NCBI GenBank assembly: GCA_038064835.1
Contig: JBBTSD010000001.1
Span: 28,422 to 92,421 of the forward strand
Origin: Patescibacteria group bacterium
GTDB taxonomy: Bacteria; Patescibacteriota; Minisyncoccia; Phycocordibacterales; UBA2100
Length of the DNA: 64,000 nt
Direction of reading: 5' to 3'
Notes under the pieces: model-generated
What the model saw: the letters and a program-made list of their open reading frames with translations, nothing else
The model's database searches: none
Told to the model about the DNA's origin: nothing
Part shown: one piece after another, positions 3,001-53,216 of the stretch
Numbering within the stretch: position 1 is the first letter of the stretch
How the letters are laid out: each line of letters opens with the position of its first letter
Program-made: the position numbers and the translations under genes

Positions 3001-6000
3001 CCGCGAGTTGCTGGTGTCGAGACGATCCCAAGGGGTACGGCGCTGGTTCCTGTATCCGCACGACGCGACTTGCCAGGAGCAGGAGGGCCGACGCCATATT
3101 CAATTCCGGGGCCACGACAAATTCAAGTAGCGCTTGGTAGTCAGGTTGTTCCTCGGTATGGAACGGTAAGCGCCCTCCCTGTAAGCGCAGTTCGTACCGG
3201 TTCGCCACCTACACCTACAGAAATGCTTGCAGTGTCTGAAATTACCCGTGCAGAATTGTTTGCCGCTCGCACGGCTGCAGCAAGTGCCCGTGCATCTGCA
3301 GTTGCAGGTGCTCCAAGAACCACTATTCAGGCGGTACAAGCAGCAAACGCAGTGGTGTCGCGCGCACTTGATGTTGAACGGGTTGTAGTCGCGGCTGCGA
3401 ATCGTGCTGCTTCAGCAGCTGGTCTTGCTTCGGTAACAATCGATGGTACTCAATTTATTGTGCGCACAGGATCGGTACCAGAAGTTGTCGGCTATATGCG
3501 AGGTACTGTGTTCGTGCAAAGTCTGCCGTTTGCTGATCTGAACGCGGGTGCAAGCGTGGCGGTAACGCGACCGGTTATATCATCAGCTCCAAGAACGACT
3601 TCTGCTGCGTCTGCTCAAACTCCCCCTGTCGGCTCAACTCCTACGCCTACCCCGGGACCTAGTAGGGTCTTTACCGCAGACGGTCGTTTTATAGGGGCTC
3701 CCACTAGAGTTGTTGAACGGCCATCTCCACTATTGACAGATATCTCACAACTCCCTGTTTTTGAGGCCAATATCCCGCGCAACCGTTCTCTCGCAGTCAT
3801 TCCGCCTGCTGGTGCAACGGGGGTGTATCCGACTGCGGCGCGAGGATCTTTCGCTCCTGCTGCAGCGCCATCCACGGCTGCGCCACCTCGACCCACGATT
3901 ACTCCAATAACATCTGCACAAGGACAGGCAATTCTAAACTACAATCGTCCTGTCCAATCAATTGAAACAATTTCTCGAGCACTCGGGCGACTGCCACAGG
4001 GGGGGCTTGCGGCAAACTTAGTTGCAGATATAAATCTTGCCCAACTACAATTAAGTGCTTTGGGGATTCTTGTGCCTGGTGGTGGGGTCATGATCCGGCA
4101 GGATGATGGTGTAATGATTGCACGGTATAGCCCCTCTGCTGGTGCATATGTACTCACCCCTGCAGCATTTGGGAGCGATGCTCCCATGCCTCCCGAACCA
4201 GCCCCAAGAGTACATACGCTTTTCTTGGGAGGCGCCCGACCGGGTGCCCCGGTGGACTTACTAGGCATTCCTACACCACCCGAAGTAATACAAGAGGTTC
4301 GTGCACGCGCTGCAGTGCGTGCCGCAATTCAGGGCGGCACCGTTCCGCGCGAAATGATACCACCGCTAGTGGCGCTTCTGGGTGCACCAACTGGATCGTT
4401 TGAGAGGGATCTTGAGGCATTTTTCATTGCCTCTGCACCATCACCAACATACACCGGCACTGCAATTATTCGCCGGTCGCCTGCGCGAGCTCGTGCTGCT
4501 GCAAGGGTAAATGCGCGCAGTGCCGCACTTGCTCGGGGCTTAGCGCCAACAGCCCCTCGCTCAGGGCTGTCTATCGACGACTTGGGAGCTGGGCTCAACA
4601 GCCTGGGTGTTTCGGCTGGTGCTTTTACCACCAACTTTGTTTCAAACACTGTTCTCAGTCGAAGTGGCCAAGATATTCCTGAATCAATAACGGGAAACAA
4701 TGTACAAAATGCGCTTTGGGGCGGGAGCCCGGCCATCTTGGAAAACCAGGGAATGCAGACTGTTTCGTTGGGAGGAGGTATTGCGGATGCCGTAGTCACG
4801 GGTGTGAATTCTGAAAAGAAAAAAACCGAGTGCCTGTCCTCTTGTTTTTCTGTGGTTGGGACTGGAGTCGCACTTGACGGCTCGGGAGGAATTTCCTTTG
4901 TTTCGCATTCTGCCCCCCCAACTCTTGTGGAAAAGAATGCAGTGGCACAAAAAGCTCTGGGAAATCATATCGGTAACGCAATCAAAGACCTGCTTGTCCG
5001 ATCGGTGCCGGGAACAGCGCGGATTGAGATTTTTGGAGGAGGATTCCAGACACTTCCTGGTAGGGAAACTCCTGAGCCTGGGTCGCTTGCTGTGTATGAA
5101 GAAGGAAAAAATTTCCTCGAGGAGACGGCCGTTCAGGCGATTCGACAAGCTCGCGCATTAAATCCTGATATCCCACTTGTGGCTATTTCTAGGCCATTAG
5201 GACCCTCCTATCCTGGAATATCAGCAGAGTCACCCCTTACGGCTGTATTTGTAGATACCCCTCGTCTTACAACGACTGTGTTTGCACCCGAATCCTTGAT
5301 AGCGGAAGGAAGAGGGGTCGCACCAGCTGGTGCAACTACACCAAACTCCCGCCAAACGCTCCCTATGGCGCGTAGTAACATTGGTGCCGAATTTCCGCAA
5401 AATACTGGCGCACTTGTGCAAGTAATCGCCACTCGTGCAGCTGCACTGCAGGGTCAAAATCCATCTCCCACCCCGCCACAACGCATTCTATTAGTGGAAG
5501 ATGACGCACGCGCAGTGAGAGGCTTCCTAGATGCATTCGAAAAATTGTTCCCCGAGCTTCCAGTGGTCAACAAAGGACGCTTCTCCGAGACACCCTCTGC
5601 AGCAGACCTGCAAGCTCCCGGTATCTTGGTCGTCACCTCAGCAGAAAAAGCCCAACTTGCACTCACGGCACCAAGGGCTCTTTCGGTTGGGCTGGTGCTT
5701 CTCGACAATAACTTGCTTGACGGACGACTTGGATACGACATGGTCTACCCGCTCATTAAAGGAAGCCAACCAAACGCTGTCGTTCTTAGTACTTCAGGGG
5801 AAGGCCGGCTTGAACAACCAGGTGTTGGGCATGTCGACAAAGGCATTGGATTCAATGCAAAAAAGCTTTCAGAGGCCTTGGCACAAGCGGGGGTACTACC
5901 CACTGCAAGTGGCATCTCACAAGCCCAACGAGGCGCAGGTGTACTCACTGGCTACCGTGAAAATCCAGTTACCGCAATTCTCCACGCGCGTGCGGCAGGA

Positions 6001-24444: not shown

Positions 24445-26271
24445 ATGTCTCTTAAAAAAGTTGTTCTCACAGCATTTGTAGCATTGATGGTAGTAGTGCC
24501 TGCGGCAACACATGCACTTACATTGGACGAGCTACAGATACAGATTCGCGACTTGCTTGCGTTTGTAAGCAGACTTCAGGCACAGCTCGACCAGCTTCGT
24601 GGAAGTACTATTGCTCCACCAAATCCTGGCGGTCCACCGCCATCGTGTCGTGTGTGGTACGACGGATGTAATACTTGTACACGGGGCAACCCTGGTGGCA
24701 ACATGGCATGCACTGAATTAATCTGTATGCAGGCATTGGATCTTGCAGAGCGGCGCTCTTATTGCAGAGAGTACTTTGATGGTGGTGTTGTGATGCCGCC
24801 GCGCCCGCCGATTTGCAGACGCCTGCTTGATGCGGTAGGGGATCTTCCCGCTGCCGAAATTCAAGAGTTTCTCAGAGACGAGGGGATATTCAATGGCGAG
24901 CCAACAGGATTTTTTGGGGGTGTTACACAGGCGGCGCTTGGTCAGTGGCAAGAAGTAAACGGCATAGTCAATCAAGGACAGAATGGATGGGGCAATTATG
25001 GACCACGCACACGCGATGCTATTCGCAGGCGCTGTGAGGGTGGTGGCCCAAACCAAGGAGCGCTTCGCGCAAAGCCGATGCGCGGACTGGCGCCACTTCT
25101 GGTCACCTTTATGCCGGGGGTACGGGTTGCAGGTCCGACGATTGCTGATGCGCCGAGTTACAAAATAAACTTTGGTGATGGGAGTCCAGAACAAACGCTG
25201 GCATGTCCACTATCACCGCCAAGTGATACATCACTACGAGACGGCTTTTGCCAGCCGGAAGTGACACATACCTACGGAACTGCTGGAACATATACTGCGT
25301 CTCTCGTTCAATTTGGTGGCTACACGATGGGGCCACCCCACACGATTACCAAAGGTCAGGTTACGATTACGGTCGTAGGTGGCCCAGATATATGCCCTGC
25401 CGTCGAGTACCAACGGCCTATTTGTAGGGACGGGGAAATACCAACACCTGGACAACATCTTTCCGGACAATGTCCTGGTCCATGGATTTGCAAGCCAAAG
25501 GAAGACTCACAATGCAAGATGTGGGGAAGTGGATGCTCGGAATGTACTCGTGAATATCCGGGAGGCCCCGCAACATGTACGCCCACAGATGGATGCTATT
25601 CTGGGTATCAGTGCAAGAAATATTTCGATGGTGTAAATGGCAACAAACCACCAACAATCTCAAGTTTCTCTGGTCCCACGACACTCCAAAATGGAGAGTC
25701 GGGAACTTGGACGATTAATGCATCAGATCCAGAGAATGGAACATTGAGCTACGATGTAAAGTGGGGAGACGAAGTGTGGCGCAACGATGTCAATACGGCA
25801 GTTGCGCTTGCACAACCAGTCTTTACGCAAGCAACAACACTTTCACATGCATACAGTCAGCCAGGCACATACACAGTGAGTGTCATTGTACGAGATATTG
25901 CGGGGAATGTGGCACGCGCGAGTTCTACGGTGCAGGTAAGGAGCGGAGCAATTTCTCCGGCGTGTCCTGGTGCAGTGCCAAGTTCATACTGCAGTGGCTC
26001 ATGGGAACAAGTGGGTCTCGGTGTGCCCGAAGGAATTGGTGTTTGTACTGTTGGTTGGATGTGCCGTCCGACGATTTGTACGGGTGAGTACGCACCAGCC
26101 TGTGGTCGGCCTGATGGATGTGTAAATACTTGCACTGGATCTGGTCCCTGTACGAATATATGCCAAATACCCCCGCCGCAGACCTATGCAAACAAATGTG
26201 TACTTCGCTCCGCACAAGCAACCTTCCTTCATGAAGGTGCATGCAGACCAGACTCAGGAAATTGGTACTAA
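24445..26271 (+). CDS. Secreted protein: signal peptide, coiled coil, Pro-rich linker, Cys-rich region, peptidoglycan-binding-like domain, two PKD-like domains
   Basis: N-terminal MSLKKVVLTAFVALMVVVPAATHA signal; PGBD-like FLRDEGIF..GVTQAALGQWQEVNGI; PKD-like FGDGSPEQT...HTYGTAGTYTASL and WGDEVW...HAYSQPGTYTVSVIVRDIAGN. Confidence 0.7.
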   Translation: MSLKKVVLTAFVALMVVVPAATHALTLDELQIQIRDLLAFVSRLQAQLDQLRGSTIAPPNPGGPPPSCRVWYDGCNTCTRGNPGGNMACTELICMQALDLAERRSYCREYFDGGVVMPPRPPICRRLLDAVGDLPAAEIQEFLRDEGIFNGEPTGFFGGVTQAALGQWQEVNGIVNQGQNGWGNYGPRTRDAIRRRCEGGGPNQGALRAKPMRGLAPLLVTFMPGVRVAGPTIADAPSYKINFGDGSPEQTLACPLSPPSDTSLRDGFCQPEVTHTYGTAGTYTASLVQFGGYTMGPPHTITKGQVTITVVGGPDICPAVEYQRPICRDGEIPTPGQHLSGQCPGPWICKPKEDSQCKMWGSGCSECTREYPGGPATCTPTDGCYSGYQCKKYFDGVNGNKPPTISSFSGPTTLQNGESGTWTINASDPENGTLSYDVKWGDEVWRNDVNTAVALAQPVFTQATTLSHAYSQPGTYTVSVIVRDIAGNVARASSTVQVRSGAISPACPGAVPSSYCSGSWEQVGLGVPEGIGVCTVGWMCRPTICTGEYAPACGRPDGCVNTCTGSGPCTNICQIPPPQTYANKCVLRSAQATFLHEGACRPDSGNWY

Positions 26272-26297
26272 TACCATCTCCAAAAGTACAGATAAAC

Positions 26298-26325
26298 AAA
26301 ACCCCATGTAGGGGGTTTTGTTTTT
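26298..26325. terminator. Bidirectional rho-independent terminator (AAAACCCC-atgta-GGGGTTTT followed by a T-run) between convergent genes
   Basis: A perfect 8-bp GC-cored stem with flanking A-run and T-run sits between the stop of the 24445 gene and the stop of the HIT gene. Confidence 0.65.
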
Positions 26326-26695
26326 AGAGTGCCGCGCGGATTTTTCTTGCATTCGCAGGAAGGTCTTCCTTGGCACCTGAAACCAAGTGCGGAGCAGGAT
26401 AGAGCCAGATGTGCGCATGAGGAACTTCATTCCCCATAATTCTTGCATACACCTCGTCCGTAGAGAAAGCCTTTTGTATCGCGTGGACAATCTTTTGTGT
26501 GGTTGCGAAGTAGCTATCTCCATTTGGCACATCCCACACCCAGCGATAGTGATCTTTTGGGATAACAAGGGTGTGTCCAGGGGAAATGGGGCGAATATCA
26601 AGAAATGCGAGGAAAGTATCATCCTCAAAAACTTTCTCTGCAGGAATTTCGTTACGAATAATTTTACAAAAGACGCAGGGTGAAGAAGTTTCCAT
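26324..26695 (-). CDS. HIT (histidine triad) family nucleotide hydrolase
   Basis: CVFCKI...[17 protein letters not shown]...HAHIWLYP (H-x-H-x-H-x-x histidine triad). Confidence 0.85.
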
Positions 26696-26835
26696 CGGAA
26701 TAGTGTACTACCTAAAATGGTCCTCAGATAAAGAATCTATCACGCACCTTCAGACGCAAGAATACTTTCCACATGGTGGCATTTGATGAAAAATGCCGGT
26801 GCTATACTGAAAGAGCATTTTTAATTATATTTTCT

Positions 26836-29028
26836 ATGAAAAAAATAGGTTTTTTTGGAGTACTGGCGCTCGCTGTGTGGATTCCCATGAGCACACACGC
26901 CGCAACGACGACCAATGTTTCTATCACCGATTTTCAATTCACACCTGCGGCAATCACCATTGTCGCTGGAGACACAGTGGTGTGGAAGAACAACGGGTCG
27001 ATGCGGCACATTGTGAACGCGGTTGATAACTCATATACGAGTGATCTTATTTCTGTGGGTGCAAGTTATCAGCGCACTTTTATAAACTCAGGGACCTACC
27101 CTTATTTTTCTTTGGTTCATGGTACTCGCACGGGTGGTGGTATGGCAGGCACCATCACCGTGACTCCCGCACCACCGCCGCCCCCTGTTTTTGTTCCTCC
27201 GCCCCCGCCACCCATTCCAGGGACACCACTAAGCCCGGGAGGGAATCTGGGAGACCTGCTTGCACAGGTTGTGAGCCTTAGCTCCTTCGTTCAGCAGTTG
27301 CAAGCACAACTTGCGAAATTGACAGGGGGCATACCGACAATTCCGCGGCCAGTCGAAACAAAAATGTGCCCCGCGGTTTTCCGGACAATTCTGCTAGGTT
27401 CGCGCGGGCAGGATGTGAAACAGCTTCAGGAATTTCTCCATGAACGGGGTTATTATACCGCGTTCGGATTTAGTGACCTGTTTGGTGCGGAAACAGAAAG
27501 TGCCCTCAAAGAGTTCCAGTGTCGGCTTGGCATAGTCTGTAGCGGAAGTCCCCGCACCACTGGGTATGGAGCGCTCGGGCCAACCACTCGGGAAGCGATT
27601 CGTGGTATGGCATGTGCTGGAGGTACGGTGTCGCCCCCAGGAAGCTTCAACTCATGCGCACTTGCAGGGGTGACAATTCCACACCAAGGTTCACGCCTTT
27701 TCTATTCTCAGCCGCAAGCTGTGTCGTGTCAGGCGGTGTCGCAACTTCGGATTTGCAACCATGGGGTGATGTCGGGCGGACAAAACTTTGCTTACAGCAC
27801 CTGCGGGCAAATACCAAGTGTTCCTGTGACGCCACCTGGCCCTATCACGCCACCACCTCCTGTAGGGACACCGAAGTGCACCTTCCTCTCGTACACTTTT
27901 GCAGAAGGTGAGAGCAAGACTTTCTTCTCGCGCGCAAATGCGCCATTTGGTGATTCGTGCGACAACTATGCGCAAGTTCGTTCGTGCAGAAACGGCGTGC
28001 TTACCGGCAGTCATGAATACTTCATATCTCAATGTCGTACACTCTCGACATCTTCGTGTACGGTAAATGGCGCGACGGTTCTGAATGGACAAACAAAAAC
28101 CTTCTTTGATCGGACGAGTGTAAGCGCCGGATCCTCGTGTAGTGCTTACTCACAAAGTCGTACTTGCACCAATGGAGAGATGTCGGGTGACAATGGCTAC
28201 ATGTATCAAAACTGTACCGACGGTGCCACCTGTACTGTGGGCGTGACGACGCTCGCCAGTCACGAGACGCGCACTTTCTATTCGCTCGGGACAGTGCCGA
28301 CAGGATCCAATTGCGGGAATTACTCACAGAGTCGTACATGTGTCAACGGGGTTGTATCAGGAGATGGGGTGTTTAACTTCCTCACATGCAGTGCACAGGT
28401 TGAGGGAAGCTGTACTCTCGACAACACCGTGGTACTAACAACGCAGTCGCGCACATTCTATCTACAAGACTTCGTGCTTCCTGGAGAACAGTGCTCTGCG
28501 TATGCACAGAGCCGTAAATGCACCAACGGGTCGTTTGACGGAAATGCTGCATACAACAAAGCTAATTGTACAAACGCAACCACAGGATCGTGTACAGTCG
28601 GTGGGTATGTGGTGAACAATGGCGCAACCCAAACCTTTTACACCGTGGCAGACGCTCCTGCTGGACATCTATGCTCTGAATACTCACAGAGTCGCTCATG
28701 TAGTAATGGCGCTGTTACTGGCACAACAAACTATGACAAGCCATCATGTGTCGATACCGACTCCTGCACGGTGAATTCGATTACTATCGGTCACAACGCA
28801 ACATCCACACTGTACTCTGCACAGACGGTCTCGTTTGGGTCGTTGTGTTCCGCGGTGGCACAAGAGAGACATTGCGTTAACGGCTCGCTCTCGGGCGGTG
28901 CATCATATATCTATTCCGGATGTGCGGTATCTCCACCGACTTCATCCGTGGCCTTCCCGCAATTGGCCAGTGTATTTACCGCAATTGATTCACTAGTGGG
29001 TGCTCTTGAGAGACTGCTCACAAAGTAA
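26836..29028 (+). CDS. Secreted multidomain protein: signal peptide, cupredoxin-like domain (Cu-ligand Cys replaced by Ser), Pro-rich linker, coiled coil, peptidoglycan-binding-like domain, ~8 tandem ~58-aa Cys-containing repeats
   Basis: The ORF is open from 26773; the likely ATG is at 26836 (MKKIGFFGVLALAVWIPMSTHA). DFQFTPAAITIVAGDTVVWKNNGSMRHIVN...GTYPYFSLVHGTRTGGGMAGTITV aligns with the plastocyanin/pseudoazurin pattern, with S where the Cys ligand should be. PGBD-like LLGSRGQDVKQLQEFLHERGYY...ALKEFQ. Repeats of the form CT..(x)..T(F/L)(F/Y)...G..C..Y(S/A)Q(S/V)R.C.NG..(S/T)G...Y....C. Confidence 0.7.
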   Translation: MKKIGFFGVLALAVWIPMSTHAATTTNVSITDFQFTPAAITIVAGDTVVWKNNGSMRHIVNAVDNSYTSDLISVGASYQRTFINSGTYPYFSLVHGTRTGGGMAGTITVTPAPPPPPVFVPPPPPPIPGTPLSPGGNLGDLLAQVVSLSSFVQQLQAQLAKLTGGIPTIPRPVETKMCPAVFRTILLGSRGQDVKQLQEFLHERGYYTAFGFSDLFGAETESALKEFQCRLGIVCSGSPRTTGYGALGPTTREAIRGMACAGGTVSPPGSFNSCALAGVTIPHQGSRLFYSQPQAVSCQAVSQLRICNHGVMSGGQNFAYSTCGQIPSVPVTPPGPITPPPPVGTPKCTFLSYTFAEGESKTFFSRANAPFGDSCDNYAQVRSCRNGVLTGSHEYFISQCRTLSTSSCTVNGATVLNGQTKTFFDRTSVSAGSSCSAYSQSRTCTNGEMSGDNGYMYQNCTDGATCTVGVTTLASHETRTFYSLGTVPTGSNCGNYSQSRTCVNGVVSGDGVFNFLTCSAQVEGSCTLDNTVVLTTQSRTFYLQDFVLPGEQCSAYAQSRKCTNGSFDGNAAYNKANCTNATTGSCTVGGYVVNNGATQTFYTVADAPAGHLCSEYSQSRSCSNGAVTGTTNYDKPSCVDTDSCTVNSITIGHNATSTLYSAQTVSFGSLCSAVAQERHCVNGSLSGGASYIYSGCAVSPPTSSVAFPQLASVFTAIDSLVGALERLLTK
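27650..28930 (+). repeat. Coding tandem repeat array: ~7-8 copies of a ~174-nt (~58-aa) Cys-containing module within the 26836 gene
   Basis: Repeated protein units, e.g. CTVNGATVLNGQTKTFFDRTSVSAGSSCSAYSQSRTCTNGEMSGDNGYMYQNC and CTVGVTTLASHETRTFYSLGTVPTGSNCGNYSQSRTCVNGVVSGDGVFNFLTC. Confidence 0.65.
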
Positions 29029-29031
29029 TAC

Positions 29032-30528
29032 ATGTACAGCGGTATCTCTGTTCGTCCGCGCGTGCTCGCCTCGGCTGTTCGCCTGGCAGTTCTCGTGGTC
29101 GTGCTCTGCACTGTTGGTTTTTACGGACAAGAAACGCTTGCGCCGTATGCGGACAGAGCGTTAGGTATCGAATACGATCAAATGCTCGCCGATGCCTCAG
29201 AGAGCGAGTTTCGGTATGTTCTCAAAAAAAGAGAGATACGCGTGATAGCCGAGGCGCGACTCAAGGCACTGATGGAAGAGTATAAGAACGATGTACCACT
29301 GCGCACCATCGAAAGACAGTCAGCATTGTTTCATGCCGTTGAGAATGAACGCCTGATCGCCGCTGATCTGAGTGTGATGCAGTTGTATCTCTATGAAGGA
29401 GGGAAAATTGTTGAAACCGTCCCTATCGCATCAAAAGGAAAACGCGGATCTCGTTGGGAAACACCGACAGGATTCTATCAGGTGCAAACAAAAGAGCAGG
29501 ATCATTTTTCGTCTATTGGTGAAGTGCACATGCCATATAGCATGCAATTTTTTGGGAACTTTTTTATCCATGGGTGGCCATATTATCCGAGTGGTACGCC
29601 AGTCGACTCAGAGTTCTCAGGAGGATGTGTGCGCCTTTCAACAAAGGATGCCGAAAAAGTGTATGCCTTTGCAGAGAAAAACACTGCGGTATTTGTGTAC
29701 GATGATCCACCCCTGCATCAGGGAGGGGTCTCATTATCGCGCCACAGTGGTTCCCCCGATGCTATCACAGCTCGGTCATTTATCGTCGCCGATGTGGACT
29801 CGGGGAGCGTCTTCCTTGAAAGAAACGCCGGGACGCCACGCACGATGGCATCAATTACAAAGCTTATGACTGCCCTCGTAGCAAACGAAAGCATCCACTA
29901 CACCAAGACGCTGCAAATTACGCGTGACGACCGTACAGGCGAGGGCGACTACGGCACACTCTCGAGCAACGACACGCTGACGGTTGGCGATGCATTCTAC
30001 CCGCTTCTGATGGAATCAAACAATGCGGTCGCTCATGCGCTTGCACGGCATTACGGGACAAATTCGTTTCTGACCTGGATGAACGACAAGGCGCGCGCGC
30101 TCGGAATGGTGCATACACAGTTTGCAGACCCATCGGGCATCTCGGCGCAAAACAAGGCAACTGCAGAAGATATTTTTCGCCTGGCACGGTACCTGCTCGA
30201 GCATCAATCCTTCATTCTTGGCGTGACTCGTCTTAAAGCAGCAATAGCAACCGACCAAAAGACCGGCGAAAAGCTTTCATTTAGGAACCTCAATCATTTT
30301 TCTGGAGACGAGCATTTTATAGGAGGGAAGACAGGATACACAACCGCCGCGAAAGAAACTATGGTTTCAATTTTCGAAGTTCCTGTAGGAACAAAGACAG
30401 CACGAGTCGCTATCGTGGTTCTCGGCTCTGAGGATCGGGAGCAAGACACAAAGAAGCTTCTTTCTTGGTTTACCAAATCCGCTGAAGAGGCAGAGAGCGG
30501 GTCTGTTATCGAAATGCGCACAATTTAA
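29032..30528 (+). CDS. Bifunctional cell-wall enzyme: N-terminal TM anchor + L,D-transpeptidase (YkuD) domain fused to a D,D-carboxypeptidase (PBP5/DacA-like, S11) domain
   Basis: YkuD catalytic motif FFIHGWPY...SGGCVRLS. S11/PBP motifs: S-x-x-K (ASITK), S-x-N (ESNNAVA), K-T-G (GKTGYT). Confidence 0.75.
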   Translation: MYSGISVRPRVLASAVRLAVLVVVLCTVGFYGQETLAPYADRALGIEYDQMLADASESEFRYVLKKREIRVIAEARLKALMEEYKNDVPLRTIERQSALFHAVENERLIAADLSVMQLYLYEGGKIVETVPIASKGKRGSRWETPTGFYQVQTKEQDHFSSIGEVHMPYSMQFFGNFFIHGWPYYPSGTPVDSEFSGGCVRLSTKDAEKVYAFAEKNTAVFVYDDPPLHQGGVSLSRHSGSPDAITARSFIVADVDSGSVFLERNAGTPRTMASITKLMTALVANESIHYTKTLQITRDDRTGEGDYGTLSSNDTLTVGDAFYPLLMESNNAVAHALARHYGTNSFLTWMNDKARALGMVHTQFADPSGISAQNKATAEDIFRLARYLLEHQSFILGVTRLKAAIATDQKTGEKLSFRNLNHFSGDEHFIGGKTGYTTAAKETMVSIFEVPVGTKTARVAIVVLGSEDREQDTKKLLSWFTKSAEEAESGSVIEMRTI

Positions 30529-34274: not shown

Positions 34275-34378
34275 CAGGGTTCAGAATCAGTAGTGGCAGG
34301 CGGTCTTCGGACCGCCTGCTTTTGTTTGACCACTCGTCACTTTCTTGCTATTCCTCAAGAGAGAAGAGGAGGACTTCC

Positions 34379-35077
34379 ATGAAAGTGTATCGCCTTCCGC
34401 GATGCTCTATTACCGATGTCGACACGGGGCTTCGTGCCGAACAAATATGGCGAGGCACCGCACGGGAACGCGCCACGCTCGAAGACTTCGTGTCGATTTA
34501 CGAGCCCAACGAGGCGTTCTCAACCAGTATGCTGGGGAAAGACCGCGACATGGTCTCGGTTCGCGCAAAGACAAAAGAAGAGTTCGAGGAATATATCGAA
34601 AGAAAAAATGTGCCACTAATTACCATGCATCGAGGTGGCGGCATGATGTGGCATGGGCCAGGGCAGATCAATCTTTCCCCCTTGGTCGATTTACGAAGGT
34701 TGGGCATCTCGATTACTGAATATAGTGAACTTTTGGAAGAAGTGTGCGTACGGACCGTGCAGGTCTTTGGAGTGCGCGGAGTTCGTCACCATTTTCACAA
34801 AGGTTCACAGGGCGCTTGGGTTTCAGTGGGTGGAGTTCTGAAAAAGATTGCTTTTTTTGGGTGGAAGGACAATCGGGGTATTGCGATTCATGGGTGCACC
34901 ATCAATGTCTCGCCAAACCTTCTCCCGTTTTCGTATATTAATCCTTGTAACTTGCGCGGAGTGGAAGCGACATCCCTGCAAGAAGTTCTGGGCTTTGCAC
35001 CGCCACTCTACGAAGTCGCATGTGTTCTTGAGAAAGTGTTTGTGAGCCTTATACAGCAAAAAGCGCATGTCGACTGA
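34379..35077 (+). CDS. lipB: Octanoyltransferase LipB (lipoyl(octanoyl) transferase)
   Basis: LipB signature RGGGMMWHGPGQ and KIAFFGWK...GIAIHGCTINV; it lies beside the E2/E1 genes. The likely ATG is at 34379 inside the ORF that opens at 34322. Confidence 0.75.
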   Translation: MKVYRLPRCSITDVDTGLRAEQIWRGTARERATLEDFVSIYEPNEAFSTSMLGKDRDMVSVRAKTKEEFEEYIERKNVPLITMHRGGGMMWHGPGQINLSPLVDLRRLGISITEYSELLEEVCVRTVQVFGVRGVRHHFHKGSQGAWVSVGGVLKKIAFFGWKDNRGIAIHGCTINVSPNLLPFSYINPCNLRGVEATSLQEVLGFAPPLYEVACVLEKVFVSLIQQKAHVD

Positions 35078-35086
35078 CATGCGCTT
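35061..35086. terminator. Bidirectional hairpin terminator (AAGCGCATGTC-gact-GACATGCGCTT) between convergent lipB and E2 genes
   Basis: An 11-bp perfect stem overlapping the lipB stop, with a T-rich tail. Confidence 0.5.
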
Positions 35087-35099
35087 TCGTCCTATCAAT

Positions 35100-36377
35100 T
35101 CACTTCAACAAAGGAATTCTCTCGGGGTGCATGAGTAGATAATGCTGAAGCACACGGAGAAACGAGATTGGCTCGCGGCCGTTCATGACCCGGTGGTCGA
35201 ATCTAAACGCAACCCGCATACGCCTCTCGTCACCACTCGCACGCACTGCACCGAATGCAATGCCGCTCGCGATGCGCGAAATCAAGAGCGGGTGGGGATC
35301 TTCGCCGCCCAAGTATTCTTCTCCTCGCCACGACACTGGCGCACCGACATTGTTGATAATGAATGTTGGATCACTCATGTCTTCGACAGTCAGTCGTCCG
35401 GTTGATCCGGCAGCACTTACCAAGCGTTCTGTTTCGCGAATCACCTCAAGGAAGCGCAAGGTCTCTGCACAACGAATGGTTGGCGTCGCCAAGCCCGAGA
35501 AAATGCCACCAGCTTTTTCTGAGGGCATCGATATCGCGAGACCGATGTGCACATTTTTGTAGAGGCGGATTTCCTTGTGTGCTCCCTCCTCGTACCAGCG
35601 TGCATTCAATGCGCGGAATTCATTTTGTGAGAGGAGCCAGGCACACGACGCGATAAAGAAGTGTTCGAGTCGCAATTTCAGACCATATGTTTTTTGCACA
35701 TGTCCCTTCAGATCCTCGCGGAGCTTCAAGAGTGCACGCACATCAACATCTACCGAATCTCCAGCAAGTGGCATGAGCTGCGCTTTGCGCATCTCTTCTG
35801 CAGTTGTTCGCTGTAGTATCGTTGGTGACACTGGCATATATGCCGACGGAGGCATATTGGGTGTCGTGGTGTTTGTAGATTTCTCATCACGAAGATCAGC
35901 TTCCCTGAGGATACTGGTCCCGGTGATTTTCACTGTCGATAAATCGACGCCCATTTCACGAGCCAAGCGTCGTGTACGCGGCGAGGCACGCACCGGACCG
36001 CCGTCAGGTTTTGGCGGAGGTCCGATAATGGGAGTGTCCGCCGTAGTTTCAACCAACTCGATTTCTGCAAGCCGGAGTGGCTCTTTGCGCAAATCAACAG
36101 AAACTATAGTGCCTGCGGGCACAAGTATTTTGATGATGCGTGCATTGATTTCAGGGCCAACGGCCTCGATATCTTTTTCACCTTTCTGCGCGAGCAAGCT
36201 TAGTATGTTCCCGCCACGCACTGTCCCTGTATCGGGGTCGACAGTGCCGGGAACTACATCGCCTTCTTGGACAAACCAGGCACGGATTTCGATGTCGAAC
36301 GGATCCGGCGGTAGGTCATTGTAGAAGCCGAGGCGGTTTTTCTGTGCCTCGGTAATCTCGAGGATTCCTCGTGCCAT
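35100..36377 (-). CDS. Dihydrolipoamide acyltransferase (E2) of a 2-oxoacid dehydrogenase complex
   Basis: Lipoyl-like N-domain, peripheral subunit-binding domain (SPRTRRLAREMGVDLSTVKITGTSIL), and catalytic domain with the DHRVMNG motif. Confidence 0.8.
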   Translation of the reverse strand: MARGILEITEAQKNRLGFYNDLPPDPFDIEIRAWFVQEGDVVPGTVDPDTGTVRGGNILSLLAQKGEKDIEAVGPEINARIIKILVPAGTIVSVDLRKEPLRLAEIELVETTADTPIIGPPPKPDGGPVRASPRTRRLAREMGVDLSTVKITGTSILREADLRDEKSTNTTTPNMPPSAYMPVSPTILQRTTAEEMRKAQLMPLAGDSVDVDVRALLKLREDLKGHVQKTYGLKLRLEHFFIASCAWLLSQNEFRALNARWYEEGAHKEIRLYKNVHIGLAISMPSEKAGGIFSGLATPTIRCAETLRFLEVIRETERLVSAAGSTGRLTVEDMSDPTFIINNVGAPVSWRGEEYLGGEDPHPLLISRIASGIAFGAVRASGDERRMRVAFRFDHRVMNGREPISFLRVLQHYLLMHPERIPLLK

Positions 36378-38639
36378 TTACGCCTCCTGTGTCAGTGTTT
36401 TAATGGCGTCCACTACCATGTGCTCGTTTGGCAAACGGTAGTTCTCAAGCACCAGATGCGCAGGAATGGGTGAATTCAGTGCGGCAATACGCTTGATGCG
36501 TCCGCGAAGTTCGTAGAATGCTTCATCTTCAGCAATTGATGCAGAAATTTCTGCACCGAATCCCATAAACCGCGAGTCTTCGTGGAGAACAACCAAGCGA
36601 CCGGTCTTTCGCACTGATGCGAGGACGGTTTCTTTGTCCCACGGATTCAGAATACGCAGATCGATAACCTCCACGCTGATATCGTTTTGTGTTGCGAGTG
36701 TTTCTGCACTCGAAAGTGCCAGCTGGAGCATCTTGGGTCCGTATGTTACGAGGGTTACATCTTCTCCTTCGCGCCGCACAATGGCGGTGAATGGAGTGAA
36801 GTATTCGCCTTCGGGTACCGTACCTGCGACCCCGTAGAAACTCATTTCTTCCAAGAAGGCAACCATGTCTGGATCTCGAACGGCGCTTTTCAGAAGACCT
36901 TTCGCATCTTCGGGAGTTGCTGGTACCACTACTTTGATGCCGAGCGCTTTTAAGAGCCAAGTTTCCACCCAGTTCTCGTGATAGTGGTTTGACTGTGGTG
37001 CATAGCCCACGGGGCCACGCATCACGCCAGGAATACCCACACGATTCATGAAGGGTCGCGTTGCCGCGATGGTGAGCAAGGGGCTTGGGCCAGCGAGGAA
37101 AAAGTTCCAAAACTGGTATTCGCCAATCACTCGTCCACCAACAAGTCCCGCGCCGACAACAAATCCGCCAATCGCCGCTTCGTCAAGTGGTGTGTTATGG
37201 AGACGTCCCCGCCACTCCGTGAGGAGGGGGGCGGTCACTTCAAACACACCACCACCAGGGAAACCGACATCCTCGCCAATCATGTGGAGGAGTGGGTCAT
37301 GCGCGAATTCTTCGCGCAATGCCGATTGCAAGGCTTCTTTGAATGTCATACGACGGGTTGGCCCATGCGCAGGGTGTGCCTGCGCAAGCGCCGCGACCGT
37401 TGTGTTTGCGGGTTCCATCAATGTGGAACGATAGTTCTCGGGTGTTGGTTCCGGATCGAGCAACGCCTTTTGGTGGGCGTCCTCAACGCGTCTCTTCACA
37501 GTGTCGCGCAGTTCGGCATAGGCGTTTGCGCCAACATAACCGAGCTCTTCACATGCCATGCGCGTTTTGAAGAGCGGATCGCTTTCGCGTCCCATCCATA
37601 TCCCCAAAAATGCAGGATCGTACAAGTGCTTCAGATAGTCGGTGCGCTCGGTGCGATTGTGGCCGCTCCGGCGAAAGGTGACAGCGTTTATGAGCGCAGG
37701 ATGGTTTGCGTGTCGTGCAAAATCCAATAAGAACCAGGTGCCCAGATACATCTCGAATGCGTTGTCACCATCGAGTGTGAGCATGGGCATTTCATACGCG
37801 ACTGCTCGGTTTGAGAGGTCGATACCTCCGTACTCTTCGCGGGGTGGTGTACGGAGTGAAATTTGGTTGTTGTGAATCGCAAACACGACAGGTAGTTGCC
37901 ATGACTTGGCAAACTGCATACCGGCATGCGCCAGTCCGTTGGTCGACGCACCATCACCAATGATCGCCACACCAGCGATGCGTTTGTCTGGCGCAAGTGG
38001 TGTTCTCTCGTGATGCTCCTCGAAACGATTACGATACCAGGTTGCGCCGTTAATGAGTACAGCGGCCATTGCCATATCAGAGGCGAGGAAGCCAAGATCG
38101 TTTCGTTTCAAATCTCCAAAGTGAAGATTCGGATCGTAGCCTCCGGTCGGGCTTGTTGCGCGCATGAGATGCATGGTCCACAAATCGTAGACAGGCATCC
38201 CCCGTGCAAGCGCTGCAGATGCATTGCGATGATCGCGAGCAAGTATGTCGCCCGCACGCATTGCGTGTCCGATACCACTACCCACGGCTTCTTGCCCAAA
38301 GTTGTCGAGCAATGCCCCTTTGAATTCGCCAGCACGATAGCTAGCAAGAACGCTCTCGTTGAAGAGTCGATTCTCAAGCACGGTCGTCAAAAGTGCACGA
38401 CCGAGATTTTCATCGCACAAAGCTATGTGTGCATGCAACCGTTCAAGGCTCTCTTTGAGCAGTGTGAGATACTCGGGGCGGTCCTTCCATGAGCGGTAGC
38501 GATTTTTCGCAACACTGACAAACTCGGCCATCTGGCATTCGAATGTGTGCGCTATTTTCTCTAGCATGACTCTTGTCCTTTGTTGACAATGTTCAGCTTC
38601 TGCATCATTTCTACTCGCTTCCAAAATATGCGCAAGCAA
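36378..38639 (-). CDS. Fused E1 alpha+beta subunit of a pyruvate/2-oxoacid dehydrogenase (TPP-dependent)
   Basis: The alpha part has the TPP motif GDGASTNG; the beta/transketolase-like C-terminal part is (MIGEDVGFPGGGVFEVT...). It is 753 aa and lies immediately upstream of E2 in the same operon. Confidence 0.8.
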   Translation of the reverse strand: MLAHILEASRNDAEAEHCQQRTRVMLEKIAHTFECQMAEFVSVAKNRYRSWKDRPEYLTLLKESLERLHAHIALCDENLGRALLTTVLENRLFNESVLASYRAGEFKGALLDNFGQEAVGSGIGHAMRAGDILARDHRNASAALARGMPVYDLWTMHLMRATSPTGGYDPNLHFGDLKRNDLGFLASDMAMAAVLINGATWYRNRFEEHHERTPLAPDKRIAGVAIIGDGASTNGLAHAGMQFAKSWQLPVVFAIHNNQISLRTPPREEYGGIDLSNRAVAYEMPMLTLDGDNAFEMYLGTWFLLDFARHANHPALINAVTFRRSGHNRTERTDYLKHLYDPAFLGIWMGRESDPLFKTRMACEELGYVGANAYAELRDTVKRRVEDAHQKALLDPEPTPENYRSTLMEPANTTVAALAQAHPAHGPTRRMTFKEALQSALREEFAHDPLLHMIGEDVGFPGGGVFEVTAPLLTEWRGRLHNTPLDEAAIGGFVVGAGLVGGRVIGEYQFWNFFLAGPSPLLTIAATRPFMNRVGIPGVMRGPVGYAPQSNHYHENWVETWLLKALGIKVVVPATPEDAKGLLKSAVRDPDMVAFLEEMSFYGVAGTVPEGEYFTPFTAIVRREGEDVTLVTYGPKMLQLALSSAETLATQNDISVEVIDLRILNPWDKETVLASVRKTGRLVVLHEDSRFMGFGAEISASIAEDEAFYELRGRIKRIAALNSPIPAHLVLENYRLPNEHMVVDAIKTLTQEA

Positions 38640-48320: not shown

Positions 48321-48713
48321 ATGGTGCGCGTAAAGATTATAGTTGCTCTGGCACTTGCAGTACTTTTGGGCGGATTCGTACTTCTTTTGTACTTGGCGCA
48401 AAGCAATGTGGCGCACAGCGTTGCTATGACAGATGATATGCAGGTGGCAATCGTACTTACACCAACCGGATATGAACCAAAAGAAGTGCGTGTAAAAAAG
48501 GGAACAACCGTTTTGTTTACCACTACCATCGGACATGCACATTGGCCATCGTCGGATTTGCATCCGTCGCACATGATTTACGCCGAGTTTGATCCGAAAC
48601 GACCACTAAAATCCGACGAGGCTTGGAGCTTTGGTTTTGACAAAGTGGGTACCTGGGGATTTCACGATCATATACGCGCCTATTTCACCGGGGTTATTTA
48701 TGTCGAAGAATAG
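48321..48713 (+). CDS. Membrane-anchored cupredoxin-like fold protein lacking the Cys copper ligand
   Basis: YEPKEVRVKKGTTVLFTTTIGHAHWP...FGFDKVGTWGFHDHIRAYFTGVIYV resembles a cupredoxin beta-sandwich with H/D/H where C/H/M would be. Confidence 0.45.
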   Translation: MVRVKIIVALALAVLLGGFVLLLYLAQSNVAHSVAMTDDMQVAIVLTPTGYEPKEVRVKKGTTVLFTTTIGHAHWPSSDLHPSHMIYAEFDPKRPLKSDEAWSFGFDKVGTWGFHDHIRAYFTGVIYVEE

Positions 48714-49914
48714 AATTCTGTTCTCTGGCGCAGGATGCTTCTTGCTTCTGTGTCTTGGGTGGCTTGTTTGGTCGTTCTTGGTGTCAGTATCGTCAAATAA
48801 TATATCGGCAATCACAGCTTGTGCCCAGGAATTTACCGGTCAATCAGAGCGGATAAATTGCTGGTATCGGTTGATTGAAAAAGAAATCATCAAAGATGGT
48901 GTGCCCGCAGGTATGCATGCCTTCACCTACATATATGACAACTATCCAGACTTTGTTTCAACAGGATGCCATGTGCATGCCCACAAAGTGGGAGACATGG
49001 TTTATTACGGCGTCTACTTGGCCGATCCTCGGCTCGAGGCACTTGAGTATCCCGATTCACTCACTGCGTGCGGCTACGGATTTTTTCACGGGTTTCTTGA
49101 ACACCTAATCCAAGATCATCCGACAACAAAATTTGTCACAGAAACATGTGAGTGGATGAGTGAGCGTCTGGAGGAAAGAATGCCCGCGATACGCACCATT
49201 TGCTATCACGGTTCCGGACATGGTTTTACTCTCGCTCAGGTAGAAAAAGTACCACAGGCGCAGTGGGGCGATCTGATTGCTTTCACTAAAGACCCGCTTG
49301 AAAAATGCGACGCTCTTTCCGTGCCGAGAGAGATTGAGCGAGAGGAGTGTCGCGAAGGCGTGTTCAATGTACTTATCAATTGGGCAGAGGGAGGTGAGTA
49401 TGGGTTTTCGTTTAATCGCGATAACCCGCTTGTGATTTGTGATGCTTTCGAGAAAAAGTGGCGACACGCATGCTATTACGAGTTTTCGCAAAAGCTGGAC
49501 CATATTGCACGAAGAGATGTGATGGAATTATGGCGGGTGGCAAATAAAATCAAAGACAGAGATGAGGCATCTGTCGTATTTCGTGTGGCCATGGCGGGCG
49601 CGGTTCAACAGACTATTGCCGACGGTACTTATATCGGCCTCACAAAGAAGTGTCTTTTGGCCGGCCCTCAAGTGGAGAACATGTGTATTGAAAGTATTGT
49701 GAATGGCCTATTTGAGCACGGTTCTCCGCGGAAAGAGCATGATAAGGCTCTCGCGTTTTGTATGGAAGAGTGGCTGAATGATGCCCAACGCACTCAATGT
49801 TATACGGCGGTTGCGACGCGGCTCTTGCGATTTCATACCAGAGAAGATGCTGATGATGATTGCAGAGACTTTCCCAAAGAGTATCAAAGCATGTGCCTTA
49901 GGGCTCGCCCATAA
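48703..49914 (+). CDS. Membrane-anchored Cys/His-rich hypothetical protein; a paralog lies at 63449-64000
   Basis: ATG at 48703 overlaps the upstream stop by 11 nt; conserved CHVHAHKVG and CGYGFFHG blocks. Confidence 0.5.
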   Translation, partial: SKNRILFSGAGCFLLLCLGWLVWSFLVSVSSNNISAITACAQEFTGQSERINCWYRLIEKEIIKDGVPAGMHAFTYIYDNYPDFVSTGCHVHAHKVGDMVYYGVYLADPRLEALEYPDSLTACGYGFFHGFLEHLIQDHPTTKFVTETCEWMSERLEERMPAIRTICYHGSGHGFTLAQVEKVPQAQWGDLIAFTKDPLEKCDALSVPREIEREECREGVFNVLINWAEGGEYGFSFNRDNPLVICDAFEKKWRHACYYEFSQKLDHIARRDVMELWRVANKIKDRDEASVVFRVAMAGAVQQTIADGTYIGLTKKCLLAGPQVENMCIESIVNGLFEHGSPRKEHDKALAFCMEEWLNDAQRTQCYTAVATRLLRFHTREDADDDCRDFPKEYQSMCLRARP

Positions 49915-51686: not shown

Positions 51687-53216
51687 TTATGCAAACGGAT
51701 GGGGCTCCTCGGCGAAAGGAGTTTCTCGTGGAGTGTATCCGAAAAGTTTTGGAATTTCAGTGAGACGCGCACCACCAAGACAGGGAAAACGCTCATTGAT
51801 ATGCAAAGGTTGTAACTCGGGAATCACGACGAATTCCACATGCCATGGTGTCGGATTTTTCGGGGAGATGCCGAGCGGGACAGAGGCGCATCCATACCCA
51901 CGCTCTGTGCACCACCCTACGATTCTATCCAGATGTTCGTCTTTGGTGTCGTGTTCCCACATGGCTTGTACGGGCTTTTCCAGCACTCCATTGGTGAGAA
52001 ATGCGAGGCGCGCCGCGCGTTTTGTATCCGTCCAATAAACCGCGCGCTCGAAATGCTTGATGCGATGTGGCACGATTGCATCTACGCTGTAGAGGTGCCG
52101 CCACGAAGAGCGAATATTTTTTCGAATACGAAGTGCCTCGCGTATCGCATGTGCGGCCGCTTCCGACAAGCGCGCATGTACGCCAAGCCCGAGTACGACA
52201 GGAACCCCGCCAGGAGCATCATCTCGGATGACAGCGCAGACAACATGCGCAGGTGCATCCGTAGGGAGCTTGATAATATCCGCACGCAGACGATAGCGCT
52301 CCATCCGTTGCAGTAACAGCGAGAGCTCATCGGACTTGTGTGCCAAATAATCGAGCGCGATGCGTGGGCAGGTGAGCTGATTAAGCCACATGATCATAAA
52401 CGCATCGCGCTCGATTATCTCGAGCGCACCATTAAGAAGTGCAAATTCCCGTGTTGGTCCGGTAGCGAGCCCTGTAGTAATTCTGGGTCGTAGCATCGGC
52501 TCTCGTTTTTCCTGGAGATACTTTCCACTTGAAGTGATTTGTGCGGGAATATACATACGTGCGTTTGTTTTAAGGCAACGACCTCTAACCCATGCAAATG
52601 CTGAATCATGCGGTACTGCGGTGGAGCGCTGTGCTCGTTGCGCCCTAGAAAAACCCGCAAAAGAGGAAATGGGGAGGTGTCGCTTCTTGGCCATATCTTG
52701 TTCTGTGCTCCAGCACAGGCCCTGCATGTGTTCGGTGTCATAGCGCCACAGGTGTCTCTCCAGACATTCGGCAAGGGCGGAAGCCAGCGCCTGCGGGTCA
52801 GATGTCGCTGAAGACCCGCCGGCCGCCTCGTCCTTCGCGAATTGCGCGCTCCATGCGTGCATGTGTGGCTCGTCAGGCATGTGGCCGGTTTGTCGAATAC
52901 CGAGAAGTATTCCAGCATCTTGAAGATTACGCACAATAGGGCGAAGCGGCAGCATGTCGCTCTGAGAAAGACGAGTGGCGTCGCGTACCAGCTCGGCTCC
53001 AAACGAAGCCTCAACAGACTCCGCAAATGCCGCCCGTGCTTTTTCGAACACATTTCCCGAACGATACTCTGTAACGACTCGAGATACAGAGCGAAGTGTC
53101 ATGAGGGGAGTATACCAATGGGCAGATATCGTCGAGCATTGACATATCTCCGTAGCGGTTGTGTTCCGCCGGTTGTGGACACGATACCCTGATACCATGA
53201 CGCCATCTTCCGCCAT
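51687..53216 (-). CDS. YcaO-domain protein (standalone cyclodehydratase-type YcaO with a C-terminal PxPxP-like tail)
   Basis: YcaO motifs ALAECLERHLW and TTGLATGPTREFALLNGALEIIERDAFMIMW; the C-terminus is ...EEPHPFA. Confidence 0.8.
   Translation of the reverse strand: MAEDGVMVSGYRVHNRRNTTATEICQCSTISAHWYTPLMTLRSVSRVVTEYRSGNVFEKARAAFAESVEASFGAELVRDATRLSQSDMLPLRPIVRNLQDAGILLGIRQTGHMPDEPHMHAWSAQFAKDEAAGGSSATSDPQALASALAECLERHLWRYDTEHMQGLCWSTEQDMAKKRHLPISSFAGFSRAQRAQRSTAVPHDSAFAWVRGRCLKTNARMYIPAQITSSGKYLQEKREPMLRPRITTGLATGPTREFALLNGALEIIERDAFMIMWLNQLTCPRIALDYLAHKSDELSLLLQRMERYRLRADIIKLPTDAPAHVVCAVIRDDAPGGVPVVLGLGVHARLSEAAAHAIREALRIRKNIRSSWRHLYSVDAIVPHRIKHFERAVYWTDTKRAARLAFLTNGVLEKPVQAMWEHDTKDEHLDRIVGWCTERGYGCASVPLGISPKNPTPWHVEFVVIPELQPLHINERFPCLGGARLTEIPKLFGYTPRETPFAEEPHPFA

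Follow-up and report, generated by a model that had tools for sequence, protein, structure and literature searches.

A plastocyanin-family cupredoxin domain with serine in place of the copper-ligating cysteine in a putative wall-anchored protein of Patescibacteria

We analysed a 64,000-nucleotide stretch of DNA from an uncultured groundwater Patescibacteria group bacterium (assembly GCA_038064835.1, contig JBBTSD010000001.1, positions 28,422 to 92,421; hereafter the window, to which all coordinates refer). One of its genes encodes a 730-residue surface protein whose N-terminal domain is a plastocyanin-family cupredoxin with serine, Ser92, in the position of the Cys ligand of the type-1 copper site. 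We favour, with a probability of about 60%, the reading that a true member of the family has here undergone a Cys-to-Ser change, with loss of the type-1 site, and now serves as a metal-independent β-sandwich module on a wall-anchored surface protein. The domain is almost certainly not a blue-copper electron carrier; that it holds no copper, and that its role is adhesive or structural, we infer from the evidence below.

Fold, family and ligand register of the domain

The gene lies within a plus-strand open reading frame (ORF) at 26773-29028, and translation from MKKIGFF, which is also the start annotated by NCBI, gives the 730-residue product. This sequence is an exact match to MEK7627813.1, which NCBI names 'MAG: peptidoglycan-binding protein [Patescibacteria group bacterium]' (MAG, metagenome-assembled genome), on a 331-kb contig. 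An earlier note on this DNA had described positions 26836-27180 as a secreted cupredoxin-like domain in which Ser replaces the copper-ligating Cys. The interval corresponds to residues 1-115 and comprises a predicted Sec-type signal peptide and one globular domain. The signal peptide agrees with the predicted secretion, but the cupredoxin is not a free protein: it is the N-terminal domain of a 730-residue peptidoglycan-binding surface protein with Cys repeats.

The match of this domain to the plastocyanin family is far beyond chance. Pfam Copper-bind (PF00127) detects it with 36.5 bits (E 6.6e-9) when the domain is searched alone and 30.6 bits in the full protein, against a cut-off of 21.2, and Cupredoxin_1 reaches 27.3 bits against a cut-off of 27; the absence of any cupredoxin hit, which the earlier note had named as fatal to its proposal, was thus not what we found. 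When PDB sequences were searched with phmmer, plastocyanins were recovered with E-values of 1.4e-7 to 1e-5 (best, Synechococcus plastocyanin 1bxu at 1.4e-7), followed by amicyanins. Structure prediction, also proposed in the note, gives a cupredoxin fold: AlphaFold2 supplied with a 59-sequence alignment of related domains (A2) returns an all-β model with a predicted local distance difference test score (pLDDT) of 97.3 and a predicted template-modelling (TM) score of 0.87, a confidence that depends on the 59-row alignment, the single sequence of the domain giving a pLDDT of 38. Foldseek relates the model, with a probability of 1.00 in each case, to plastocyanins, amicyanins, pseudoazurin, Nitrosopumilus cupredoxins, Bacillus anthracis Cupredoxin_1, FtrB and the Cup domain of EfeO in the PDB. 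TM scores of 0.7-0.8 to plastocyanins and amicyanins place the predicted model among the Greek-key cupredoxin β-sandwiches.

The NCBIfam models of individual carriers score far below their cut-offs (35.5 bits against 87.85 for the plastocyanin equivalog TIGR02656, with the halocyanin and amicyanin models also far below theirs). We therefore assign the domain to the superfamily and to PF00127 but to no named carrier. An assignment to plastocyanin proper was rejected on the TIGR02656 score.

The motifs SMRHIVN, YPYFSLVHG and GGGMAG, in which the earlier note placed the ligand positions, are all found in the plus-strand ORF. HMMER pairs YPYFSLVHGTRTGGGMAG, and likewise the longer stretch GTYPYFSLVHGTRTGGGMAGTITV, with the ligand loop of Synechococcus plastocyanin. 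Relatives with loops of equal length align without gaps, the sequences being YPYFSLVHGTRTGGGMAG in the 730-residue protein, YPYYCKPHGSPGGLGMAG in P0018 (Ca. Kaiserbacteria), FAYHCKFHGGAGGVGMSG in P0019 and FPYFCQLHGAAGGGGMAG in P0183. This gapless alignment puts Ser92 in the Cys column and His58, His95 and Met103 in the other three ligand columns, in accord with the proposed Ser substitution and with the proposed upstream His and downstream His and Met. In the alignment, therefore, the two His ligands and the axial Met of a type-1 site are present and the Cys thiolate is absent. The loop has the form S-x2-H-x7-M, three residues longer than in plastocyanin; to judge from the aligned relatives, this insertion is a trait of the subfamily and not a fault of the alignment. 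A register error, in which a true Cys ligand elsewhere would complete a normal type-1 site, can be given next to no weight: residues 1-140 are free of Cys, which first appears at residue 178 in the peptidoglycan-binding domain, and Ser92 falls exactly under the Cys of the relatives. We rejected this explanation because the domain has no Cys.

A type-1 (blue) site and its colour require the Cys thiolate. A domain with Ser92 should therefore form no blue site, as the earlier note had argued, and because the thiolate is missing we expect neither the S(Cys)-to-Cu charge transfer at ~600 nm nor a small A-parallel value in electron paramagnetic resonance. The expectation also agrees with Fet3p, in which the Cys484Ser change in the cupredoxin domain that bears the type-1 site causes loss of type-1 copper, with the copper content falling from 3.8 to 2.7 per protein (PMC5796215). 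C112S azurin is treated as a metal-free form, according to indirect statements (bioRxiv 10.1101/2025.10.10.681544).

The Ser could be an artefact: a TGT codon may have been misread or misassembled, or the gene may be a decaying pseudogene whose live protein has Cys. The Ser92 codon, TCT, is one transversion from TGT (Cys), a point in favour of this explanation. However, an independent ENA contig from Hainich groundwater well H51 (ERZ1292641, 3.9 kb), corresponding to 26194-30128 of the window, is 99.95% identical over 3,935 bases and has the same TCT codon; its differences are one mismatch and one indel, both downstream of that codon. This contig has only ~3x coverage and carries its frameshift later in the gene, points that lend the artefact explanation some support. 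A fragment from a third contig (P0194) has the same domain and the same Ser and differs by two substitutions in the peptidoglycan-binding region, and thus comes from a distinct strain. The 730-codon frame is also unbroken in the window. Because three assemblies share the Ser (the NCBI MAG, ERZ1292641 and the P0194 contig), one of them a strain variant, we rejected sequencing error and consider an artefact of any kind very unlikely. As a separate observation, the one-base indel in ERZ1292641 shortens the predicted protein to 613 residues with a wrong C-terminus, and it is this version (P0004) that represents the cluster in the protein database.

Rarity of the serine and recurrent loss of the site

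We assessed how unusual Ser92 is from related domains. An exhaustive HMMER search returned 14,824 representatives at E <= 0.001, mostly multi-cupredoxin proteins ranked by summed score, and in this search no relative outside the protein's own cluster exceeded ~52% domain identity. Neither the domain alone nor residues 22-265 recovered an orthologue in word-index protein searches, the matches numbering 3 and 10, respectively. In place of true orthologues, the census therefore uses 746 cupredoxin domain instances from fetched proteins together with syntenic Kaiserbacteria orthologues. The Cys column of these 746 instances holds Cys in 669, Asp in 67, Ser in 7 and another residue or a gap in 3. 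The combination H-S-H-M occurs once, in the domain described here. Within the long-loop subfamily, X-x2-X-G-x6-M, 190 instances have Cys and His at the variable positions and only two have Ser, namely the Ser92 domain and the first domain of P0167 (S-x2-D-x7-M).

The 67 domains of the Asp type (first domains of P0020, P0022 and P0043-P0186) mostly stand at the N-terminus of proteins with several cupredoxin domains, such as some from Acidimicrobiia, and share the pattern 'RHR ... Y.D[DEH]R[ND]....Y.G'. They appear to be a conserved natural Cys-to-Asp class and not the product of random decay.

At 46 loci in GTDB genomes nearly all the domains are canonical, including small lipoprotein-type cupredoxins of Uhrbacteria and other Patescibacteria. 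Thus, bacteria of the candidate phyla radiation (CPR) do possess intact type-1 sites. The single-domain scan of GTDB missed the source genome of the window.

Loss of the copper site recurs among related surface proteins. A search with the full-length protein found three others (P0018, P0019 and P0024) with a matching arrangement of N-terminal cupredoxin, helix and PG_binding_1. The sites of P0018 and P0019 are intact, that of P0018 being C-x2-H-x7-M (CHHM). In P0024 (Ca. Kaiserbacteria MBI5457779.1, 'cupredoxin domain-containing protein') the corresponding sequence is YPYRSTLDVAPNGPSM, in which the Cys column is filled by Ser and the His column by Asp (S-x2-D-x7-M; H-S-D-M). P0018 and P0024, both from Kaiserbacteria, have the same order of cupredoxin, helix, PG_binding_1 and PKD, and their genes sit in the same neighbourhood, SmpB, FtsH ... 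gene ... RecG (locus L048, 8001-9722, and locus L050, 8001-9542). The shared neighbourhood indicates that they are orthologues, and hence that the copper site was lost inside one orthologous group. In L048, two further PKD/PG_binding surface proteins follow the cupredoxin gene.

Comparable losses are seen in other proteins. A Peribacteria MAG (CAZEGN010000001.1, locus L010, ORF at ~3001-3255) encodes SLH domains, which serve for cell-wall anchoring, followed by a C-terminal cupredoxin with the sequence NYNSIFQTEMMG, in which Ser occupies the Cys column and Gln the His column (S-x2-Q-x2-M), and P0002 has Asp in both columns. Because the nearest neighbours of each variant have Cys, these losses are independent. 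The copper site is thus dispensable in wall-anchored proteins of this type, and the recurrence of its loss makes Ser92 only moderately unusual.

Copper-free module or altered metal site

In related wall-anchored proteins the site has decayed repeatedly and further than here; this, together with the envelope context of the gene described below, leads us to favour the copper-free reading. On this reading the 730-residue protein would be exported by Sec and anchored on the wall through PG_binding_1. The cupredoxin module would be displayed with a Pro-rich stalk on one side and seven four-Cys repeats, presumably of disulfide type, on the other, at the outer end of the surface protein and available for binding or spacing. 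In the cell of an episymbiotic member of the Patescibacteria its role would most plausibly lie in envelope architecture or attachment, and not in electron transfer.

Several observations weigh against this reading. The domain retains His58, His95 and Met103, three of the four ligands, and its Gly-rich loop is near-identical to that of copper-binding relatives (FSLVHGTRTGGGMAG compared with FCQLHGAAGGGGMAG). Such a pattern, the sole H-S-H-M among 746 instances, would be expected from a loss in the very recent past or from a metal site kept in altered form. The protein has no close orthologues (the next best has 52% identity) that could reveal selection on the ligand positions. An adhesive or structural role would follow only from the architecture of the protein and the lifestyle of the phylum.

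The domain might instead still bind metal at a non-blue site formed by His58, His95 and Met103, with the hydroxyl of Ser92 or a water as the fourth ligand. Such a site would be type-2-like Cu(II) or His2-Met Cu(I), and the protein would capture, buffer or sense extracellular copper or another metal, or carry out slow redox chemistry. We regard this as possible, if on balance improbable. Retention of both His, the Met and the loop would be unexpected after long neutral decay, and no other of the 746 instances combines Ser with all three; the other Ser variants P0024 and the first domain of P0167, both H-S-D-M, also keep the first His and the Met. Nevertheless, Ser variants in relatives exchange the second His for Asp or Gln, so that no conserved Ser-type site is seen, and the three kept ligands of the Ser92 domain may mean only that its Cys was lost recently, which the single base change between TGT and TCT would allow.

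Precedents on related scaffolds point in both directions. In FtrB, from a family with no conserved Cys ligand, Cu2+ is bound at micromolar affinity through Asp118 (PMC11966278); Bacillus anthracis Cupredoxin_1 has been crystallised with Cu and with Zn (4hcf, 4hcg); and, among engineered azurins, C112D has a type-2 site and C112D/M121L a 'type zero' site (PMC11953277). The conserved Asp in the Cys column of 67 of the 746 related domains likewise suggests that alternative sites are common on this scaffold. However, a Ser hydroxyl is a poor copper ligand, much poorer than an Asp carboxylate, and the direct experimental analogue, Fet3p C484S, loses its metal (PMC5796215). There are also no copper-related genes nearby among the window ORFs that we scanned.

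A bolder form of the same idea is that Ser92, His58, His95 and Met103 make up a natural functional non-blue His2-Met Cu(I)/Cu(II) centre on a plastocyanin scaffold, displayed on the wall of an ultra-small episymbiont for copper capture or redox exchange with its host. This would parallel the engineered 'type 2 / type zero' azurins or the sites of His2-Met monooxygenase type, and we consider it unlikely. The earlier note had offered a non-redox binding module and a different mode of metal binding as alternatives, and our evidence is compatible with exactly these two readings.

Among known systems, the closest likeness is to plastocyanin/amicyanin-type proteins of PF00127, especially the long-loop C-x2-H-G-x6-M subfamily, with which the domain shares fold, strand order, His and Met positions and a 7-residue Gly-rich loop between His and Met, at identities of 35-52%. 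Surface-anchored proteins that carry members of this subfamily occur in Chloroflexota, Actinomycetota and Patescibacteria (P0018, P0183, P0200 and P0203 are examples), and they are extracytoplasmic and tethered as the 730-residue protein is. In contrast to type-1 carriers, the Ser92 domain has Ser for the Cys thiolate, is fused to PG_binding_1 and four-Cys repeats instead of being small and free or lipid-anchored, and has no redox partner in its neighbourhood. P0024 and the Peribacteria SLH-cupredoxin resemble it in several respects: their N- or C-terminal cupredoxins belong to proteins attached through PG_binding_1 or SLH, Ser takes the place of the Cys ligand, and the first His and the Met persist. 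In both, however, the second His is gone as well, replaced by Asp or Gln. P0024 further differs in having PKD domains instead of four-Cys repeats and a different gene context. These losses are independent.

Among eukaryotes, plant early nodulin-like proteins (ENODLs) are surface-anchored cupredoxin folds without copper ligands that are thought to act copper-free (PMC3184959). By analogy, the Ser92 domain would likewise be an exported cupredoxin fold tethered at the cell surface. ENODLs, however, belong to the phytocyanin family and its stellacyanin/uclacyanin lineage, are anchored through glycosylphosphatidylinositol or as arabinogalactan proteins and usually lack several ligands, so that the relationship is at the level of the superfamily only. 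The Cys-less copper-binding cupredoxins FtrB (Cup-II, 8vuk), EfeO N-terminal Cup (7wgu) and Bacillus anthracis Cupredoxin_1 (4hcf) also have the fold without a Cys ligand and stand at Foldseek ranks 1, 20 and 25. Unlike the Ser92 domain, they use Asp, His and Glu, occur in iron-uptake operons (FtrABCD, EfeUOB) and are only 18-22% identical to it; the FtrB type is marked by the copper residues D118 and H121, by clustered Glu residues for Fe2+ and by an operon with FtrA/C/D (PMC11966278). Membership of the FtrB/EfeO family was rejected, given Ser instead of Asp in the Cys column, 18% identity to 8vuk and the lack of Ftr and Efe genes in the window ORFs scanned. Finally, the engineered proteins Fet3p C484S and azurin C112S, C112D and C112D-M121L are altered at the same single position of the same fold, but the Ser92 domain is a natural sequence from an environmental population.

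Architecture, neighbourhood and implications

The 730-residue protein consists of a signal peptide, the cupredoxin, a Pro-rich linker, a predicted helix, PG_binding_1, seven four-Cys repeats and a helix-like C-terminal tail (Table 1). The putative signal peptide was recognized by reading the sequence, from a KK n-region, a hydrophobic core and a T-H-A cleavage motif, and an equivalent junction directly precedes the domain in relatives (P0018, AVSA/ATVNV; P0019, AHA/ATVTV; P0002, VFA/ATTNVSIT; slash, junction). A helix-like segment also stands 5' of PG_binding_1 in P0018, P0019, P0024, P0006 and the neighbouring ORF 24445-26271. With an above-cut-off PG_binding_1 domain (PF01471) in a predicted exported protein, the product is a putative peptidoglycan-binding wall protein. 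The repeats have the consensus C..G....F[FY]......C..Y.Q.R.C.NG..G...Y....C, and homologous repeats are common to many metagenome PG_binding_1 proteins (P0005-P0017), in up to ~14 copies. Searches of Pfam, NCBIfam and the PDB gave no relative of them, and they look like an undescribed extracellular repeat family. P0005 and P0006 end in tails similar to the C-terminal tail of the 730-residue protein.

Table 1. Positions of the surface-protein gene, its ligand codons and other genes discussed
Feature	Window position	Strand	Basis
Whole gene, 730-residue surface protein	26836..29028	+	ORF, NCBI identity, Pfam domains
Sec-type signal peptide, residues 1-22 (MKKIGFFGVLALAVWIPMSTHA, then ATTTN)	26836..26901	+	Inferred by reading the sequence
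Cupredoxin (plastocyanin-family) domain, residues 23-110	26902..27165	+	PF00127, PDB plastocyanin match, AlphaFold2, Foldseek
His58 (CAC), N-terminal His ligand column, kept	27007..27009	+	Invariant column in alignments A1 and A2
Ser92 (TCT), in Cys thiolate ligand column	27109..27111	+	HMMER and gapless alignments
His95 (CAT), C-terminal His ligand column, kept	27118..27120	+	HMMER and gapless alignments
Met103 (ATG), axial Met ligand column, kept	27142..27144	+	Invariant column in A1 and A2
Pro-rich linker (PAPPPPPVFVPPPPPPIPGTPLSPG)	27166..27240	+	Read from translation
Predicted amphipathic helix (NLGDLLAQVVSLSSFVQQLQAQLAKLTGG)	27244..27330	+	Sequence comparison
PG_binding_1, Pfam match at residues 190-234	27403..27537	+	PF01471, E 1e-9, 38.8 bits against a cut-off of 23
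Seven tandem ~58-residue repeats, four Cys each	27628..28935	+	Repeat and Cys positions
Putative C-terminal helix-like tail (SVAFPQLASVFTAIDSLVGALERLLTK)	28942..29025	+	Sequence comparison
Neighbouring surface protein, 608 residues: signal peptide, helix, PG_binding_1, PKD domains	24445..26271	+	Pfam; NCBI MEK7627811.1, 'PKD domain-containing protein'
Downstream gene: YkuD L,D-transpeptidase and S11 D-Ala-D-Ala carboxypeptidase in one polypeptide	29032..30528	+	Pfam; NCBI MEK7627814.1
Second cupredoxin-like protein, 130 residues, N-terminal membrane anchor, no Cys	48321..48713	+	NCBI MEK7627834.1, 'hypothetical protein'

The context of the gene is the cell envelope, not redox. It lies between the PKD surface-protein gene and the YkuD-S11 fusion gene, which is followed by RecJ (the neighbouring proteins are numbered consecutively, MEK7627811, -814 and -815). 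In the window ORFs scanned we found no nitrite reductase, multicopper oxidase, cytochrome, haem-copper oxidase, copper transporter or other copper-handling gene, nor any Ftr or Efe gene.

A giant ORF of 8,109 codons (34-24363, plus strand) immediately precedes the surface-protein cluster; it is rich in Ala, Gly, Pro and Arg and has only 0.2% Cys. Neither half has a Pfam domain at E <= 1e-4; its last ~200 residues include Cys-bearing segments like those of the neighbouring surface proteins. Elsewhere in the window are two divergent YcaO-domain genes (51687-53216, minus strand, and 53161-56385, plus strand), one of them a 1,074-residue AMMECR1-YcaO fusion, and a set at 34322-38639 comprising lipoate-protein ligase, 2-oxoacid dehydrogenase E2 and a fused E1 (E1_dh and transketolase domains, 752 residues), which is possibly unusual for this phylum.

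The earlier note had also pointed to a second Cys-less cupredoxin-like protein, encoded at 48321-48713, and this proposal holds. Its hhalign probability against the cupredoxin alignment is 92.3% (E 5.5e-7), with an amicyanin match at E 0.002 and a Pfam Cupredoxin_1 score of 20.2 bits, under the cut-off of 27. Its ligand columns hold His, Asp, Arg and Phe, with the Asp of 'FHDH' at the Cys column and Arg and Phe at the His and Met columns, and the protein is His-rich (HAHW, HPSH, FHDH). The 3' end of its gene overlaps an ORF at 48631-49914 that encodes a Cys-rich 427-residue product with no Pfam or NCBIfam match.

Cupredoxin folds without a type-1 site are already known; the case described here is a natural Cys-to-Ser domain of the plastocyanin family on a CPR wall protein. 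Our literature search returned no paper on Patescibacteria cupredoxins that bears on it. As a single lineage-restricted protein without close orthologues, its impact is limited. If the domain is copper-free, it would be a bacterial addition to the known pattern, seen in ENODLs, in which cupredoxin electron carriers are reused as surface modules. Should the three kept ligands still hold metal, the domain would provide a Cys-free site of a kind rarely met in nature on plastocyanin scaffolds, with which bioinorganic studies could usefully compare engineered azurins. The wall-anchored proteins of CPR/Patescibacteria hold both live and dead cupredoxin domains. For annotation, a 'plastocyanin/Copper-bind' match in such genomes should not be read as a capacity for electron transfer until the Cys column has been checked.

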